In this document: positions 11,579 to 24,370 of the stretch, one piece after another
Layout: each line of letters opens with the position of its first letter
Position numbering within the stretch: position 1 is the first letter of the stretch
Assembly: GCA_030612605.1 (NCBI GenBank)
Contig: JAUWNO010000001.1
Span: 1 to 24,370 of the forward strand
From: Armatimonadota bacterium
Lineage (GTDB): Bacteria > Cloacimonadota > Cloacimonadia > Cloacimonadales > TCS61
DNA: 24,370 nt
Direction of reading: 5' to 3'
Translations under genes and position numbers: made by a program
Notes under the pieces: model-generated
Database searches by the model: none
Seen by the model: the letters and a program-made list of their open reading frames with translations, nothing else
Told to the model about the DNA's origin: nothing

Positions 11579-11634
11579 TTTTTTGTGGATTCCCGTCCCC
11601 AATCAAGTTGAGGACAAACTTTCACAGGAATGAC
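11579..11634 (-). repeat. Second, inverted copy of the 7792-7846 repeat
   Basis: Reverse complement reads gtcattcctgtgaaagtttgtcctcaacttgattggggacgggaatccacaaaaaa. Confidence 0.85.
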
Positions 11635-11642
11635 AATAAGTT

Positions 11643-11680
11643 AAAACTTCGGAAGCCTTTAAAGACTTCCGAAGCTTTTT
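11643..11680. terminator. Hairpin CTTCGGAAG-10nt-CTTCCGAAG flanked by A/T tracts; REP-like and/or intrinsic terminator of the SBP gene
   Basis: Perfect 9-bp stem 11647-11655/11666-11674 with AAAA and TTTTT flanks, about 12 nt after the SBP stop. Confidence 0.55.
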
Positions 11681-11691
11681 ACTGATTCCTC

Positions 11692-12441
11692 TTAAACTCC
11701 CCGCTTTTTCAAAATCTTATCAAAAGTCCCGTCTTCTTTTATCTTGTCTAAAGCAGCCTGTAATTTCTTAACAACCGCATCAGAAGTATTTTTATTGATG
11801 GCAAGATAATATCCGCCTTTGGTGAGTTCTTCCAGGATAAATACTCCATTGATAACTTCTTCTGGTTTAAAGCCGGCTTCCTTTACAATATAACTTGCAG
11901 TTACATCCGGCATGGGCCACAAATCGATCTCTTTGTTCATCAGCTTTTCAAAATTGGCTTTGTTGTTTTCAGACACGATTAACTGCTCATCAATCTCGAA
12001 ACCTTTAGATTTGAAAAAGCTTTCCCGTGCATCACCCGGAGTGATCCCGATTTTGTACTTTTCCATTTCTTCTAAAGCTAAGATTTCAATATCCTCTCTT
12101 TCTGCCAGAACAAAAACTGAATAATTCGTGGGAGCAATTGTTCCCACCCATTTGAAAAGTTCTTCCCTGTCCGGTCTGCGGCTTGTTGAAAATAAGATGC
12201 AATTTTTTGTGCTCAGAGCAGTTTCATAAGATTCTTTCCAGGGATGAACCTGAACCTCATAAGATATTCCTGCTTCGGTTAAAATGGCTTTCACAACCTC
12301 TGTTGATAAGCCAGCTATTTCTCCATCCTTTGTAAAATTAAAAGGTGGAAATTCCTCTGTTAACACCACAAGATGCTGTTTGGCGCATGACAAAATAAGC
12401 ACCATGCAAAGTAACAGAACAAATTTAATTCCTGCTTTCAT
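11692..12441 (-). CDS. Family-3 (amino-acid-type) extracellular solute-binding lipoprotein
   Basis: Start placed at ATG 12441 (GGAGG RBS, lipobox LILSC). Motifs TEEFPPFNF, GEIAGLSTEVVKAIL, PWK, RREELFKWVG and LQAALDKIKEDGTFDKILKK. Confidence 0.88.
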   Translation of the reverse strand: MKAGIKFVLLLCMVLILSCAKQHLVVLTEEFPPFNFTKDGEIAGLSTEVVKAILTEAGISYEVQVHPWKESYETALSTKNCILFSTSRRPDREELFKWVGTIAPTNYSVFVLAEREDIEILALEEMEKYKIGITPGDARESFFKSKGFEIDEQLIVSENNKANFEKLMNKEIDLWPMPDVTASYIVKEAGFKPEEVINGVFILEELTKGGYYLAINKNTSDAVVKKLQAALDKIKEDGTFDKILKKRGV

Positions 12442-12690
12442 TTTTTCCCTCCGTTTTTTTTCTCCAACTATTTTGGATTTTTTTCTTTCTTTTTTACTCC
12501 CAAAACTTTCTGTCCAGACTACGATATTGCACAGCTTCGCTGATGTAGATATTGGAAAGAACTTCCGTAGAAATACCGAAAAGCCAACTCGGGCTTCCAC
12601 TTATAGAGTTAAAAAATACAATCAGTCCGAATACTGAATATTTTTAACACAATGTCCCTGACTGTCCACTTAAAAAACAGGTTAGTCCAA

Positions 12691-12828
12691 TTATTTTTTC
12701 TTCGGCGGCGGCGGCGGCGGCGGCGGCTTTATACGATCTGGTGGTGGACTAACATTCCGTCCTTTGTTAACTCCTTCTCGAATTATCGTAGATCTAGGTG
12801 GTGGTGGATTTGATTCTTTCTTTCCCAT
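12691..12828 (-). CDS. 45-aa proline-rich basic micropeptide (not in the ORF track)
   Basis: GGAGG RBS 6 nt before ATG 12828. Translation MGKKESNPPPPRSTIIREGVNKGRNVSPPPDRIKPPPPPPPPKKK*. Overlaps the last 35 nt of the upstream DUF6338-like gene. Confidence 0.6.
   Translation of the reverse strand: MGKKESNPPPPRSTIIREGVNKGRNVSPPPDRIKPPPPPPPPKKK
12703..12726. repeat. (CGG)8 / (CCG)8 trinucleotide microsatellite encoding Pro8
   Basis: Eight perfect CGG units read directly. Confidence 0.95.
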
Positions 12829-13453
12829 TTTTTACCTCCCACGTTTTTTTCATAAATTCAACCATTTTAACTTCTTTCACATCGACCATTATTGAATTTA
12901 AACCTGTTAGTTGAATTTCTCCTTTTTCTTTGCCTTTCTCATCAGAATCAAGCCATGAGGCTTGTACGAGGACAAAATGTCCTTTTTCTGAATCCGATGG
13001 CCATTCTTTTACCCAACCATAAAGCCGTCTCTCACCGTCCAAATGAAGGACAATATATGTCTCATTATCTTTATCTAGAAACGTTCCGAACCATTCAGAA
13101 GGATATGAAGTTTCCTTAGTAATGTTCCAATTTCGTAGTTTTGTGTGAACTTTATCGTTATTAGCGTAATAAGAAAAAATAATTCCAAATAGTATAGCAA
13201 CAGCTATAGACCAAATTAAGTTAGAATATGAATTCCAGTTAAATAAAGGCAATTTGTTTCCAATCAAGAACATCAATTCTTTGAATAGATAAACAAACCC
13301 CTGTATAAAAATTGTAAAAATAAGAGCTTGCACAACTCTCTCAAATTGAGACGGCTTTGGGAATGAGGTTAAACCATAAAAAATCCAAGCCGCTACAAAT
13401 CCTGGAAATAAATATTGAAATAATGTAACAAGGTCTTTTGATAAAGATTCCAT
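12794..13453 (-). CDS. DUF6338-like membrane protein
   Basis: N-terminal YLFPGFVAAW..F, ERVVQALIF, three TM segments, then PSEW..F, YIVLHL.GERRLYGW...WP.....GHF-L..A.WL; recalled as the DUF6338 pattern. Confidence 0.7.
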   Translation of the reverse strand: MESLSKDLVTLFQYLFPGFVAAWIFYGLTSFPKPSQFERVVQALIFTIFIQGFVYLFKELMFLIGNKLPLFNWNSYSNLIWSIAVAILFGIIFSYYANNDKVHTKLRNWNITKETSYPSEWFGTFLDKDNETYIVLHLDGERRLYGWVKEWPSDSEKGHFVLVQASWLDSDEKGKEKGEIQLTGLNSIMVDVKEVKMVEFMKKTWEVKNGKERIKSTTT

Positions 13454-13637
13454 TTGTAATTTTACCTCTATTATTCAACTTTGTTAATGCTAATATACAT
13501 TATGCTGCTTGTTTATGCAGTATAGGAATAATCATCTAATATGACTTAATTAATAAACTACTTAACTTATTGAACAACATACAAAAAAATCGAATCATTT
13601 TCTATGTCAATATTATTTCCTGTAACATTTTTAAAAT

Positions 13638-15176
13638 TTATTCCCAAAATTTCCTGTCCAAACTCCGATATTGAACTGCTTCGCTGACGTGAGCTACTGT
13701 TATATTTTCACTTTCTTCCAGATCAGCAATTGTACGGGAAACCTTTAAAATTCTATCATAAGCCCTGGCAGAAAGTCCCATCTTATCCATTGCCATTTTG
13801 AGCACATTTTTACTTTCATCATCCAATTGGCAATATTTTCTTATCTGTTTGGGATTCATCTGGGAATTACTGTAAATTTTTTCAACTGCAAATCTTTCCA
13901 ATTGGATGTCTCGTGATATATTCACTCTTTGCCTGATACTTTCGGATTTCTCTCCGGTTGGAAGTCCGCTGAGTTCTTCATATTTCACAGCAGGAACTTC
14001 CATGTGAATATCGATCCTATCCAGAAGCGGACCGGAAATCCGGGAGCGATATCTTTGAATATTGGCAATCGGACATGAACAAGTGTGTCCTTCCACATTG
14101 CTGCCGAAATATCCACACGGACAAGGATTCATGGAAGCAACCATCATAAACTTAGCAGGAAATTCCAGGCTTTGAGTAGCTCGTGAAATAGTTACAACCT
14201 CATCTTCAAGCGGCTGGCGAAGAACTTCCAACACAGATTTTTTAAATTCCGGCAATTCATCCAAAAAGAGAACTCCATTATGAGATAAAGATACTTCTCC
14301 GGGTTTGGGATAACTTCCACCGCCAATCAGGGCAACATCGCTAATTGTGTGATGCGGAGAACGAAACGGACGACTGGTTACAACTCCCTTTCTGCTACCG
14401 ATCAAACCTGCAACAGAATGTATTTTGGTGGTCTCCAAAGATTCTTCCAAAGTCAATCCCGGCAGAATTGTAGGAATACGTCGGGCTAACATTGTTTTCC
14501 CAGAACCTGGGGGACCGAGCATAAGCACATTATGTCCGCCTGCTGCTGCTACTTCCAAAGCTCTTTTCACATGAAACTGCCCTTTCACATCATACATATC
14601 AACCGGACTTTCATTCAGTTGAGCAAAAATTTCCTTTTTATCTACTTTGACAGGTTCAATCTCGATCTTTCCTTCCAGAAAGTTCACAACTTCATTCAAC
14701 GAAGTTGCGGGAAAAACATTTAATTCTTCAATAATAGCAGCTTCTTTTGCGTTCTCATAGGGAAGAATAAGACCATCCAGTTCATCTTTCCAGCAAGCTA
14801 TGGCAACCGGCAGAACTCCACGAACAGGTCGCAAATTGCCGTCTAAAGATAGTTCTCCTATAAAAGCATATCTTTCCATTTTATTTGATTTCATCTGGTG
14901 CAAAGCTAAAACTAAAGCTAATGAAGTGGGAAGGTCCAATGCCACGCCATCTTTTTTAATATCTGCAGGAGCGAGATTAACAGTATATCTGTGGGTCGGA
15001 AACCTGAAACCGGAATTCTTAATTGCTGCTGAAACTCTATCCCGGCTTTCTTTCACAGAATTGGATGGTAATCCTACAATGTTAAATTTGTACAATCCAC
15101 CTTTAACATCTGCTTCCACAATGATCTGCTCAGCATCGATTCCCTGAATTGCATACGAAATTGTTCTGCCGTACAT
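13638..15176 (-). CDS. comM: YifB/ComM family Mg-chelatase-like AAA+ ATPase
   Basis: Start placed at ATG 15176 (AAGGAG RBS). Motifs VGLPSNSVKESRDRV, VNLAPADIKK, GELSLDG, GPPGSGKTMLARR, RPFRSPHH, LFLDELPEF, SMNPCPCG, ISGPLLDRID and SARAYDRILKVSRTIADL. Confidence 0.95.
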   Translation of the reverse strand: MYGRTISYAIQGIDAEQIIVEADVKGGLYKFNIVGLPSNSVKESRDRVSAAIKNSGFRFPTHRYTVNLAPADIKKDGVALDLPTSLALVLALHQMKSNKMERYAFIGELSLDGNLRPVRGVLPVAIACWKDELDGLILPYENAKEAAIIEELNVFPATSLNEVVNFLEGKIEIEPVKVDKKEIFAQLNESPVDMYDVKGQFHVKRALEVAAAGGHNVLMLGPPGSGKTMLARRIPTILPGLTLEESLETTKIHSVAGLIGSRKGVVTSRPFRSPHHTISDVALIGGGSYPKPGEVSLSHNGVLFLDELPEFKKSVLEVLRQPLEDEVVTISRATQSLEFPAKFMMVASMNPCPCGYFGSNVEGHTCSCPIANIQRYRSRISGPLLDRIDIHMEVPAVKYEELSGLPTGEKSESIRQRVNISRDIQLERFAVEKIYSNSQMNPKQIRKYCQLDDESKNVLKMAMDKMGLSARAYDRILKVSRTIADLEESENITVAHVSEAVQYRSLDRKFWE

Positions 15177-15244
15177 AAATGCTCCTTTAATTTGCATCAA
15201 CCGTGTTGATGCTTAAAATATCACGGATATTTTACTCCAAATTC

Positions 15245-15276
15245 AACCTTTCCGAAGGTTCGAAACCTTCGCAAGA
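15245..15276. repeat. Hairpin CGAAGGTT-cga-AACCTTCG, related to the 11643-11680 palindrome
   Basis: 8-bp perfect stem 15253-15260/15264-15271 between the lamin-tail gene and comM. Confidence 0.55.
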
Positions 15277-15284
15277 TTTAATAT

Positions 15285-17684
15285 TTATTTCCCAATCACA
15301 ACAGTAGTTTTCTTTGCATATACTTTTTCAGATTCGCGTGAAGTTGCTTCCATCAAAACAATGTAAACTCCGATGGAAAGATTCCTGCTGTTATCTCCTC
15401 TCCCATCCCAGATCAAATCTCCTTCGCTCGCTTGTAGAGTTTGATCAACTAATTTTTTTACTAGCCTTCCTTTCAAATCAAAAATCCGGATTGTAACACG
15501 ACTCAGTTTTTCCGGTAATTTAAAGCTGAAAATTGTCCTTTCACTCTGATATGGTGAGAATGGATTGGGATTCACAGAAAGCTTCACATTAGATGGTAAG
15601 ACTTGAACAAAAATACTGTTTTGAGTTCCCGGAGTACACACATTAACCGCAGGTCCCCAGTTCTCTGGATTCGCAATTATTCCGGGATTTACCCTCTCGA
15701 TGGAAACTCCTTTCAAATCATCATTCCAATCCGAAATATAGAAGAAACTTTCAATCTGGTTATCGCATTCATCAATGATAGAAATTTGTTCTCCATTATT
15801 GGAAAGAGAACCAAGTCCGGTAAAAATAGGAATATCTTCCAAATCGTAATTTGATTGTAAAAACTGAATATCTTCGTTGGAATTTGTTATCAAAATATAC
15901 TCATTCTCTGAAAATGGAATAGAAATAGTATCTTCATCTACAATAAGAAAAAACTCCTCCAATGCAAATATAAAATCGTTTATTTTCAATTCCAGCCATT
16001 CCGGTTCTTCTTCATTGGGATTGTACATAATTTCGTTAACTACAAAAGGAAGAGCATTATTATTATAAAAGCTAAAATCAATATTATTGTATTCATTCAA
16101 ATCTTCAATTGAAATTATTTCATATTTAAATGTTGTGTAACCTATTGGAGTAATATCTGTTAAGAATATAAAAAGAAGCGAATCTAAAATTGCAATTTCC
16201 TGCTGATAAATTTCAGTTTCAGAAATATCGTCATCTAAAATGGTCGAGCAAATAAAAACTGCATCTGTAATATTTTCCAGACCAATATTTTTAATAATAA
16301 CAGAATGTTCGATCTGGTTTTGCTGAACTTCGAAGCTATCAGCAACAAGCTCTAAATCTTTTTCTGCAGGTAACACACTGTTCTGAAAAGTTGGAGTTGC
16401 ACCCATGCTATCCTGGCAAACATCCCAAACAATATTTTCATCGCTGAACGGATTGACTCTTTCGATAGAAAAATTCGTTGGGCAATTGTTTCCTTCATAA
16501 GATGTAGAATCGAATTTTGTTTCGTACTGATCTACCAATTTGAGACTTTCTTCTGTATTATTCAAAGCAGTCCAACTTTCCGCTTCTACTATTTTATCAG
16601 GATTTGTTTCAGGATAGATTTCCAAGAGTAAATTTGGGTCTTGGCACACAACCATAAAATCTTGAGAATCAATAGAGCCGGAAAAGCTGATTTGACCGCC
16701 CGATGCATCGATTATTGCGAAGTTATCCACAAGATATCCACTTGCAGAACGATTGAAAATTTCAATCCATTCCTGATTGCTCACAGCAGGCTTAAACATT
16801 ACTTCATTCAAAACCAGAGGAGAACTTCCAATTAAAATTGAACTTGATGCCGAGTTGTTCTCTAAGTTGTTATCAAAAAGATAGTTAACTGTTATTTCGA
16901 CATTATAATAACCTGCAGAGAATGAACCAAGCTCACAGGAAAAAGCAATATAACTTTCAGGCAGAATCTCTGGTAAATCATAAACGTTGAAAACACTATT
17001 ATTAATGGTGATTTCCAAGCTTGCTGTTGAGTTATCCACAATTTCTGTGGATAAATTGAAAACCTCTGTTTCCAACCATAAGATGCCCTCTATTTCAGTA
17101 ATATTCAGCTCATAAATTGCCAGATCTATCGGATATATATTCGGTTCTCCGGGAGTTGGATTTTCACATTCAAAAAAATCAATCTCGCAATTATCAGAAT
17201 CCTCTCCATCATGTTTTCGAGCGAGAGTATTTCCGCTACTTACGTCAGGAGCAAAATATTGACCCGGAGAAGAAATATCATCAGGAAGATTATTTGAATT
17301 TGGCGAGTCATATAAAACTGTATCAGTATAAATTGCATCAGCAGATACTATCCTGATCCCATCGGTTGCAGTTCCACCATTTTGAAAAACTAAGGTTGTT
17401 GTTATATCTGTATTTGGAACAAATTCTTCACCAATTAAAATGAAGCTGTCCGGTTCAATTATTATCTCTGGGAAAGTAAAAACATCGTCAAAGCTTGTTC
17501 CTGCTTTCTGGATTATCCAGTTTTCCAGATTTACCGCTTGTTCTCCTGCATTATAAAGCTCAATCCATTCATAACCTGTATCTGCTCCTGTTGGATCGTA
17601 TAATACTTCATTTATTACGATATTTTGAGATAATAAGAATGAAAAAATACTAAACATAAAAAGAAAATAAATAATTCTTTTCAT
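15285..17684 (-). CDS. Secreted protein with three lamin-tail domains, Ig/CARDB-like linkers and a C-terminal FlgD-Ig/T9SS-like domain
   Basis: Signal peptide; IVINEVLYDP..EWIELYN, LVLNEVMFKP..EWIEIFN and FVVNEIMYNP..EWLEL; C-terminal PNPFSP..IFDLKGRLVK..WDGRGD..GVYIV. Confidence 0.85.
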   Translation of the reverse strand: MKRIIYFLFMFSIFSFLLSQNIVINEVLYDPTGADTGYEWIELYNAGEQAVNLENWIIQKAGTSFDDVFTFPEIIIEPDSFILIGEEFVPNTDITTTLVFQNGGTATDGIRIVSADAIYTDTVLYDSPNSNNLPDDISSPGQYFAPDVSSGNTLARKHDGEDSDNCEIDFFECENPTPGEPNIYPIDLAIYELNITEIEGILWLETEVFNLSTEIVDNSTASLEITINNSVFNVYDLPEILPESYIAFSCELGSFSAGYYNVEITVNYLFDNNLENNSASSSILIGSSPLVLNEVMFKPAVSNQEWIEIFNRSASGYLVDNFAIIDASGGQISFSGSIDSQDFMVVCQDPNLLLEIYPETNPDKIVEAESWTALNNTEESLKLVDQYETKFDSTSYEGNNCPTNFSIERVNPFSDENIVWDVCQDSMGATPTFQNSVLPAEKDLELVADSFEVQQNQIEHSVIIKNIGLENITDAVFICSTILDDDISETEIYQQEIAILDSLLFIFLTDITPIGYTTFKYEIISIEDLNEYNNIDFSFYNNNALPFVVNEIMYNPNEEEPEWLELKINDFIFALEEFFLIVDEDTISIPFSENEYILITNSNEDIQFLQSNYDLEDIPIFTGLGSLSNNGEQISIIDECDNQIESFFYISDWNDDLKGVSIERVNPGIIANPENWGPAVNVCTPGTQNSIFVQVLPSNVKLSVNPNPFSPYQSERTIFSFKLPEKLSRVTIRIFDLKGRLVKKLVDQTLQASEGDLIWDGRGDNSRNLSIGVYIVLMEATSRESEKVYAKKTTVVIGK

Positions 17685-23802: not shown

Positions 23803-23907
23803 AGCATTTTAGCATTTCAGCATTTTAGCATTTCAGCATTTCAGCATTTTAGCATTTTAGCACTTAGCATTTAGCATTTTAGCATTTCAGCATTTAGCAT
23901 TTTAGCA
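23803..23907. repeat. Tandem 7-8-bp repeat AGCATTT(T/C), 13 full units plus a partial
   Basis: Units read directly; one unit is AGCACTT and three are 7 bp. Confidence 0.95.
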
Positions 23908-24056
23908 ATATTATTGGGGATGGATACTGAAGCTCTTCTAATCTGGTTTGTAATCCCCCACAATTCTTCTTTTGGAAAATCTTTAGTAACTTGATAAATC
24001 TCTAAAACAAATTTATTCGCTTTTTCCAAAACTTTTATTTTCTGTAATTCTCTCAT
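23871..24056 (-). pseudogene. Truncated four-helix-bundle (S23/23S-IVS-protein-like) gene
   Basis: MRELQKIKVLEKANKFVLEIYQVTKDFPKEELWGITNQIRRASVSIPNNIA matches the N-terminal half of the family, then runs into the tandem repeat and stops at 61 aa. Confidence 0.85.
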
Positions 24057-24070
24057 TATATTCTTCTAAG

Positions 24071-24137
24071 AGCTAACTGGCTAACAAGCTAATGGCTAAC
24101 CAGCTAAAGGCTAACAAGCTAACGGCTAACCAGCTAA
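24071..24137. repeat. Tandem GCTAA-core repeat, 9 units with ~15-bp higher-order periodicity
   Basis: agctaact ggctaaca agctaat ggctaacc agctaaa ggctaaca agctaac ggctaacc agctaaa. Confidence 0.9.
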
Positions 24138-24370
24138 ATTCTACAAATTTTACAAATTCCTTCGTTTATTTTTAAGAATGACTTTTTAAAAATCTCATTA
24201 ATTTTTTCAAGTTTATTTTTTTTAAGATGCTGATAAATTATCCGGCGTTCTGCATACTGATTCTTTTCATGAGCCAAATATTCGTTATCCTTATATTCAA
24301 TATCAAATTCAGAAAAATGCGTTTGTTTCCCATCTTTAGTAATTTTTATAAGCATTCCATTTTTTATTTC
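24134..24370 (-). CDS. 3' end of an unidentified CDS running off the window edge
   Basis: Frame is open from the window end (EIKNG-MLIKITKDG...) to a stop at 24134; same strand as its neighbours; no motif recognised. Confidence 0.45.
   Translation of the reverse strand, partial: EIKNGMLIKITKDGKQTHFSEFDIEYKDNEYLAHEKNQYAERRIIYQHLKKNKLEKINEIFKKSFLKINEGICKICRI

Follow-up and report, generated by a model that had tools for sequence, protein, structure and literature searches.

Comparative evidence for a mobile two-gene module of a DUF6338 membrane protein and an overlapping polyproline microprotein at the 3' end of comM

We analysed a 24,370-nt stretch of DNA from an Armatimonadota bacterium (placed by GTDB in the Cloacimonadota, lineage TCS61; assembly GCA_030612605.1, contig JAUWNO010000001.1, positions 1 to 24,370), called the window below, and in it a pair of genes encoding a 219-aa protein of the DUF6338 family and a 45-aa basic polyproline microprotein (coordinates in Table 1). 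The open reading frame (ORF) of the microprotein and the DUF6338 gene share 35 nt (12794-12828), the microprotein being read in the +1 frame. Its Shine-Dalgarno sequence is made of Trp-Glu-Val codons of the DUF6338 gene, and the corresponding residues W205 and E206 are nearly invariant in the homologue alignment. The microprotein reads MGKKESNPPPPRSTIIREGVNKGRNVSPPPDRIKPPPPPPPPKKK, with three proline tracts (P4, P3 and P8) and Lys-rich ends. The initial annotation of this DNA had described the two ORFs, the 35-nt overlap, the ribosome-binding motif, the three tracts and the basic ends, and it was correct in every detail. The larger protein matches the DUF6338 profile (PF19865) with 43 bits against a cut-off of 26.5 (E 5e-11), residues 7-203 aligning with positions 7-202 of 205, and has at least 973 homologues, the nearest of which are 55-82% identical. 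Its gene is present in a single copy in the assembly, and a search of 40 related genomes with the window protein gave no homologue.

A search of the genome itself with a profile of the peptide family returned the window ORF as the sole match (E 1.3e-14), and no further Pro-rich micro-ORFs of the same type were found there. The P8 tract is the longest in-frame run of Pro codons in the 2.81-Mb assembly (34.5% G+C), and the (CCG)8 repeat that encodes it is the longest perfect trinucleotide repeat of the assembly; CCG makes up only 23% of the Pro codons in long ORFs. In homologues the same tract is written in mixed Pro codons, in contrast to the pure CCG at the window locus, which hints that the repeat slipped recently and may differ in length within the population. 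A promoter scan 5' of the DUF6338 gene gave 3 sites against a shuffled expectation of 4.9, which is not above chance, and the best site would leave no leader; we therefore claim no promoter.

If the small ORF is a real gene, a short Pro-rich, Lys-ended ORF should stand beside other DUF6338 genes; the initial annotation had named the lack of such an ORF as refuting its reading. We drew 160 loci with DUF6338 relatives from collections of genomes and metagenomes, and in each of them the DNA surrounding the stop codon was translated. The DUF6338 gene was intact in 155 of them, 7 of which end at a contig edge within 130 nt of the stop. Conservation by position and composition was borne out: a Pro-rich ORF of 26-56 aa occupies the same position in 147 of the 148 evaluable loci, the only exception being L036. 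The hosts represent at least seven phyla and belong to the Desulfobacterota, Bacteroidota, Planctomycetota, Nitrospirota, Spirochaetota and Alpha-, Beta- and Gammaproteobacteria, and include Vibrio cholerae, Serratia, Enterobacter and Stutzerimonas. An alignment of 93 non-identical peptides (A3) gave the consensus M-x-K-K-x-S-N-P-P-P-P ... G-x-N-x-G-x-N-V-N-P-P-P-P-x-x-V-K/R-P(6-12)-K/R-K/R. The window peptide, 44-70% identical to the other 92, has the same architecture (N-PPPP ... N-V-N-PPP ... K/R-P(n)-K/R-K/R). By this comparative evidence the small ORF is confirmed as a true gene, and DUF6338 with the microprotein as a genuine two-gene module.

The peptide is also selected as a peptide. 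Conserved Pro columns are 92-100% Pro, with CCA, CCG, CCT and CCC all used freely, and besides the prolines N7, K4 and N27 are more than 90% conserved in A3. In every close peptide pair the proportion of nonsynonymous differences (pN) is lower than that of synonymous differences (pS); since synonymous sites are saturated (mean pS 0.72), only the direction of this inequality was used. Some DUF6338 proteins carry a 'KNGKE-IKSTT' tail, which is an other-frame reading of the DNA for MGKK-SNPPPP, and the peptide is unchanged where DUF6338 stops earlier, so that the selected frame is the peptide frame. Taken together, these comparisons show selection on the peptide at the amino-acid level.

The existence of a separate gene bears on the most trivial explanation of the locus, that a single gene was split by a frameshift or homopolymer error, or that the small ORF arose by chance. 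An A6 run (12829-12834) does lie at the junction before the ATG, the metagenome assembly is fragmented (593 contigs), and rare true fusions of the two genes exist. However, a TAA in the +1 frame stands directly before the ATG, the peptide begins with a conserved motif (M-G/S-K-K) of its own, and homologues keep two ORFs, often with a gap between them. Relative to the end of the DUF6338 stop, the start of the peptide ranges between 65 nt before and 49 nt after; the peptide ORF overlaps DUF6338 in 107 of 140 loci, and the relative frame is +1 in 110, 0 in 16 and +2 in 14. Because the start offsets vary and all three relative frames are used, the small ORF is an independent cistron and not a frameshifted tail. 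We regard an artefact as scarcely credible; a frameshift or fusion reading of the window locus itself was ruled out by the TAA before the ATG and by the separate ORFs in homologues.

The number of peptide genes per DUF6338 gene is not fixed. Serratia quinivorans (L051) has one DUF6338 gene with five paralogous Pro-rich peptide genes in tandem ~130-700 nt after its stop, and three are found in Pseudomonas stutzeri, so that peptide dosage varies. These genes have largely escaped notice: the peptide profile retrieved 54 entries, all unnamed, from a collection of 5.8 billion protein clusters that holds at least 973 DUF6338 relatives, which indicates that the peptide is almost never called as a gene. 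A look-up of the peptide in the ESM Atlas gave only an uninformative match of 0.79 to one unnamed cluster.

In the window the pair lies between comM, which encodes a Mg-chelatase-like ATPase, and a gene for a solute-binding protein, and the initial annotation had called it accessory on that ground. Alignment with three sister genomes, in which the ComM proteins are 98% identical, bears this out. The module is flanked by two 54-nt direct repeats of 85% identity, one being the present 3' end of comM and the other a displaced copy of it. In the sister species G003 (comM protein 98%, DNA ~92% identical) the site is empty, and a single 54-nt copy links comM directly to the region upstream of the solute-binding-protein gene; by blastn, window positions 11620-12546 and 13637-15300 match adjoining, overlapping segments of the G003 contig (L163 3931-3005 and 3058-1368). 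Seven of the eight substitutions between the repeats are synonymous and the remaining one exchanges Val and Ile, so the two copies have separate histories as coding comM ends, each in a lineage of its own, and the displacement happened recently. Compared with G003, the two copies have 3 and 5 mismatches, both within genus-level variation, and either of them may be the native or the imported one. The two copies differ almost only synonymously, so comM stays intact.

The same comM site holds other cargo in the genus. In G001 it carries a KAP-family NTPase (L164:96-1487) that matches the candidate defence family PDC-S20 of PADLOC end to end (E 8e-125), and in G002 (L167:1221-2208) a 223-aa gene of no known family together with a SocA/Panacea-like fragment. 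As sister genomes are either empty here or carry different cargo, the junction downstream of comM is a variable accessory hotspot. The 1.09-kb insert contains no integrase or other recombinase gene; it may have been inserted by an integrase acting in trans or by a single crossover of a circle that carried a foreign comM end, or it may be what is left of a larger island. In the 144 nt that follow the peptide gene, where a cassette would have its attC site, there is no significant hairpin (z -1.3); the comM-end repeats bound the unit instead.

Table 1. Features of the module and its insertion site in the window
Feature	Position	Strand	Basis
DUF6338 gene, 219 aa	12794-13453	minus	ORF call, Pfam PF19865
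Gene for the 45-aa basic polyproline microprotein, absent from the gene calls	12691-12828	minus	ORF call, homologues in other loci
Shine-Dalgarno sequence GGGAGG, 6 nt 5' of the microprotein ATG	12835-12840	minus	Read from the sequence
Perfect (CCG)8 repeat encoding P8	12703-12726	minus	TRF
Terminator-like hairpin inside the insert, ~95 nt 3' of the microprotein stop	12579-12598	minus	Pattern scan; weak T tail, candidate only
Unique part of the insert (module and flanks), missing from the sister species	12547-13636		blastn against G003
Left direct repeat, displaced copy of the comM 3' end that no longer codes, still reads ISEAVQYRSLDRKFWE-stop	12493-12546		Repeat search and sister-genome alignment
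Right direct repeat, present comM 3' end, reads VSEAVQYRSLDRKFWE-stop	13637-13690		Repeat search and sister-genome alignment
comM/YifB gene, Mg-chelatase-like ATPase; 3' end is the insertion site	13638-15200	minus	Pfam Mg_chelatase, E 2.6e-95

The listed TTG start of comM is probably too far upstream, as the ORFs of sister genomes start at MYGRTISY, 8 codons in. The solute-binding protein is listed as a 302-aa ORF with a GTG start (11692-12600, minus strand) that spans the displaced comM-end copy; its real start is probably an internal one, MKAGIKFVLLLCMVLILSC, with a lipoprotein-type signal. Between this gene and the next, a dyad with 18-nt arms, 89% complementary and without a loop (11641-11679), is probably a bidirectional terminator. 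Near the end of the window (23803-24159) there are dense short tandem repeats, with AGCATTTT-type units in 13.5 copies and 15-nt AGCTAAnGGCTAACA units in 4.4 copies.

Signs of mobility are not confined to the window. Direct repeats of 17-435 nt flank the module in about ten other loci, and in V. cholerae ATCC 14035 (L030) the pair of DUF6338 and peptide genes exactly fills one integron cassette. There, repeats that we take to be VCR-type from the VCR consensus lie at 379-510 and 1257-1383, with RYYYAAC/GTTRRRY ends on both sides; one repeat of this type, 123 nt long, has its GTTAGCC end 14 nt 5' of the DUF6338 start codon, and another begins at the stop codon of the peptide. The preceding cassette of this integron holds an 88-codon ORF (101-367). 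Among the nearest neighbours in 75+75 loci no family is recurrent, so that no further gene belongs to the module and it is autonomous. A minority are of defence type (ThsB_TIR in 5 of 75; DruA, DrmC, Old, AbiLi, PycTIR and restriction-modification in 1-2 each), and transposases and one integrase are also found among them. The module is further present on 31 contigs of the IMG/VR collection, which may or may not be true phage DNA. Comparison of these loci shows the DUF6338 gene and the microprotein gene to be, on the evidence of their distribution and boundaries, a self-contained, horizontally mobile two-gene unit. As a separate observation, the closest homologous module (L083:139-1368; DUF6338 ~77-78% identical) has a Druantia DruA gene immediately upstream of it.

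We modelled DUF6338 with AlphaFold2 from 87 sequences (predicted local distance difference test score, pLDDT, 91.3). The model has helices at residues 2-28, 36-65 and 75-99 and a short amphipathic helix, followed by a helix and six strands (120-200). The C-terminal part, approximately residues 114-206, adopts an Sm/LSm fold: Foldseek gave E 3.6e-5 with template-modelling scores of 0.69-0.76 to Sm/LSm proteins, and VIA gave Z 9.6 with a root-mean-square deviation of 1.9 A over 68 residues (6ppv_A). The matches to the domain comprise dozens of chains from Sm, LSm and Hfq proteins (archaeal and eukaryotic Sm/LSm at Z 9.6-8). A profile search of the sequences in the PDB with DUF6338 gave no match. 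The modelling thus presents DUF6338 as a protein of three predicted membrane helices and an Sm/LSm-fold domain. In the family scans of the two proteins, a weak match to AgrC (E 0.025) was far below the cut-off and was discarded.

The stretch after the third helix is rich in Lys and Arg, and by the positive-inside rule the N-terminus would be outside and the Sm-like domain in the cytoplasm. The microprotein should share this compartment, because it has no signal sequence. The domain is rich in aromatic residues that are invariant in the homologue alignment (W121, F122, F125, Y145, W147, W151, F160, W167 and F200). Aromatic-rich surfaces bind polyproline-II helices in SH3, WW, GYF and EVH1 domains and in profilin, and by this analogy the composition of the DUF6338 domain, typical of such surfaces, gives a lead to what the microprotein may bind.

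Natural fusions place the two proteins in one chain, in which DUF6338 runs into a peptide-like tail (...NPSPP...GNPPP...RPPPPPPPPAKK). One of them, P0137 (L168:2922-3668), occurs in identical form on 12 contigs that come from several samples; another, P0128 (L171:4001-4780), is on one contig. When P0137 was modelled, the linker received a pLDDT of ~55 and the terminal poly-Pro segment one of 81-85, values that are weakly indicative, being compatible with docking of the tail and also with mere stiffness of the tract. Prediction of a complex of DUF6338 and the peptide, both given as alignments, scored 0.02, which allows no verdict.

Homologues of the microprotein are made in cells. In a proteomic study of P. 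stutzeri ATCC 14405, three novel Pro-rich peptides of 36-47 aa, SEP1, SEP5 and SEP2, encoded directly after a DUF6338 gene, were detected by mass spectrometry with 98-100% coverage and 44-114 spectra (PMC10433244). They were predicted to be cytoplasmic and were found unprocessed, and the DUF6338 membrane protein itself was not detected (PMC10433244). The authors judged the peptides not to be conserved outside P. stutzeri and possibly to be de novo genes, and raised an antimicrobial role for proline-rich small proteins (PMC10433244). We found that SEP5 matches the profile of the window peptide family (probability 94%, E 1.4e-7), which means that one family member is made as a stable, unprocessed peptide; SEP2 matches the same profile weakly. 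The locus of S. stutzeri JZ20 (L032) encodes a clear homologue of the window peptide.

These data bear on the possibility that the small ORF acts only in cis, ribosome pausing on the Pro tracts tuning mRNA stability or expression while the peptide itself is functionless. Runs of PPP and longer stall ribosomes without elongation factor P (EF-P), and the P8 tract is the longest Pro run of the genome. However, DUF6338, the only other gene, precedes the small ORF and cannot be attenuated by it. Moreover, K4, N7, N27, the Lys/Arg end and the length of the peptide are conserved, peptide genes occur in tandem and in in-frame fusions, and homologues are found to accumulate at full length. The initial annotation had offered a ribosome-stalling role among others; given the conservation outside the prolines and the full-length peptides in P. 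stutzeri, a purely stalling role does not hold up well, and we consider it highly unlikely.

Very little probability also attaches to an exported proline-rich antimicrobial peptide with DUF6338 as its exporter or immunity protein. The peptides are cationic, proline-rich and 40-55 aa long, and the authors of the P. stutzeri study raised such a role, as mentioned above. Yet in the 45 residues of the window peptide neither a signal or leader peptide nor a hydrophobic stretch is present; the module has no linked gene for a transporter, a protease or a modifying enzyme, and no transporter recurs among the 150 neighbours. In the fusions the tail extends the membrane protein at its cytoplasmic end, and the P. 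stutzeri peptides are predicted cytoplasmic and unprocessed.

We favour a model in which the microprotein is a partner of the membrane protein. The two would be made together by coupled translation, since the Shine-Dalgarno sequence and the start codon of the microprotein lie inside the DUF6338 gene. Lacking a signal, the basic microprotein would stay in the cytoplasm, on the same side of the membrane as the Sm-like domain, and may bind this aromatic-rich domain as a polyproline-II ligand or regulatory subunit, thereby controlling what the membrane protein does. Synthesis of P4, P3 and P8 should need EF-P, so that the supply of microprotein would track translation capacity; an efp gene is present in the genome, and the microprotein has runs of three or more consecutive prolines. 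Its cassette-like mobility and its landing sites make it most likely that the pair has an accessory role which is conditional, is exerted at the membrane and concerns addiction, stress or phage defence. We put the chances of this model as a whole, a coupled cytoplasmic microprotein regulating a membrane-bound Sm-like protein, at about even. Several observations weigh against it. Most immediate neighbours in the 75+75 loci are housekeeping genes; none of the 50,697 phage genomes in GenBank and only 1 of 72,556 plasmids carries the module; neither protein has a usable match among the families of PADLOC, PHROGs and NCBIfam; and the high pLDDT of the poly-Pro tail in the fusion model may reflect only the stiffness of the helix.

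The initial annotation had also thought of a toxin/antitoxin-like or anti-phage pair and of an EF-P or stress sensor. These ideas may hold: the defence-type cargo at this site in a sister genome, some defence neighbours in other loci and the cassette form in V. cholerae speak for them, the mostly housekeeping neighbours and the lack of a defence or toxin family match against them. A stricter version would make the pair a toxin-antitoxin or abortive infection system, with the membrane protein as the toxin (a pore or depolariser, perhaps an Sm-type ring) and the hard-to-translate, presumably short-lived polyproline peptide as its antitoxin, so that the toxin is freed when translation or EF-P activity falls, as phage takeover might bring about. 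Such a system would fit an autonomous two-gene unit with presumably coupled translation, and two-gene cassettes of the V. cholerae integron, one of which the pair fills, are typically toxin-antitoxin pairs. The PDC-S20 KAP-NTPase of G001 and the SocA/Panacea-like gene of G002 at the same comM site, the defence-type neighbours in some other loci, and the abundance of the peptides in P. stutzeri next to an undetected membrane protein point the same way. However, no toxin or antitoxin family matches either protein, most neighbours are not defence genes, and the peptides are well detected in P. stutzeri, which gives no hint of rapid turnover. The fusions, moreover, would join toxin and antitoxin in one chain, which is unusual for such pairs. 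On balance we hold this version to be rather unlikely. Somewhat more doubtful still is a specific elaboration, in which a mobile addiction or anti-phage module consists of a membrane Sm-type ring restrained by an EF-P-limited polyproline microprotein, the supply of the latter would let the cell gauge how well it can translate, and a failing supply would lead to self-permeabilisation or arrest; this would be a new class of module.

Returning to the partner model and to what the pair means more generally, the microprotein family is strongly constrained, ancient and tied to one membrane protein, in place of the earlier view of species-specific or de novo genes. DUF6338 thereby becomes part of a defined two-component system that is directly testable. 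Few natural polyproline products of bacteria would be more extreme than the microprotein, and DUF6338 would be an unusual, membrane-bound use of the Sm fold. The window, with the filled site, the empty site and alternative cargo at one comM hotspot in sister species, offers a natural experiment. As a conserved pair, DUF6338 and the microprotein are unrecognised in the literature; our searches on polyproline, EF-P and toxin-antitoxin systems and on integron cassettes found nothing on the module.

Several known systems share parts of this arrangement. The domain of DUF6338 has the fold of Sm, LSm and Hfq proteins (an N-terminal helix and a strongly bent, five-strand beta-sheet) but has no obvious Sm1/Sm2 sequence motifs and is anchored in the membrane by three helices. 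Eukaryotic SmB bears proline-rich tails, which the natural fusions of DUF6338 and peptide resemble. Like EF-P-dependent stalling motifs, the microprotein contains PPP or longer runs; however, proline-containing arrest peptides are encoded upstream of the gene that they regulate, whereas the microprotein is encoded downstream and is itself a conserved, stable product. As in integrative islands that target the 3' end of a gene, the insert in the window restores the 3' end of its target, but it measures only 1.09 kb and has no recombinase gene. With the toxin-antitoxin cassettes of the V. cholerae integron the module has in common a compact gene pair that fills one cassette between VCR-type repeats, and it differs from them in that the large gene comes first and the small one second, and in the lack of a known toxin or antitoxin domain. 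The closest described system is the DUF6338/SEP operon of P. stutzeri, known there from expression only. Like the window locus, it has a DUF6338 gene and, directly behind it, short Pro-rich ORFs for basic peptides that end in PPPP(P)K(K/R), with three tandem peptides in place of the single one in the window; and whereas the SEP peptides were reported as species-restricted, the peptide family described here spans many phyla.

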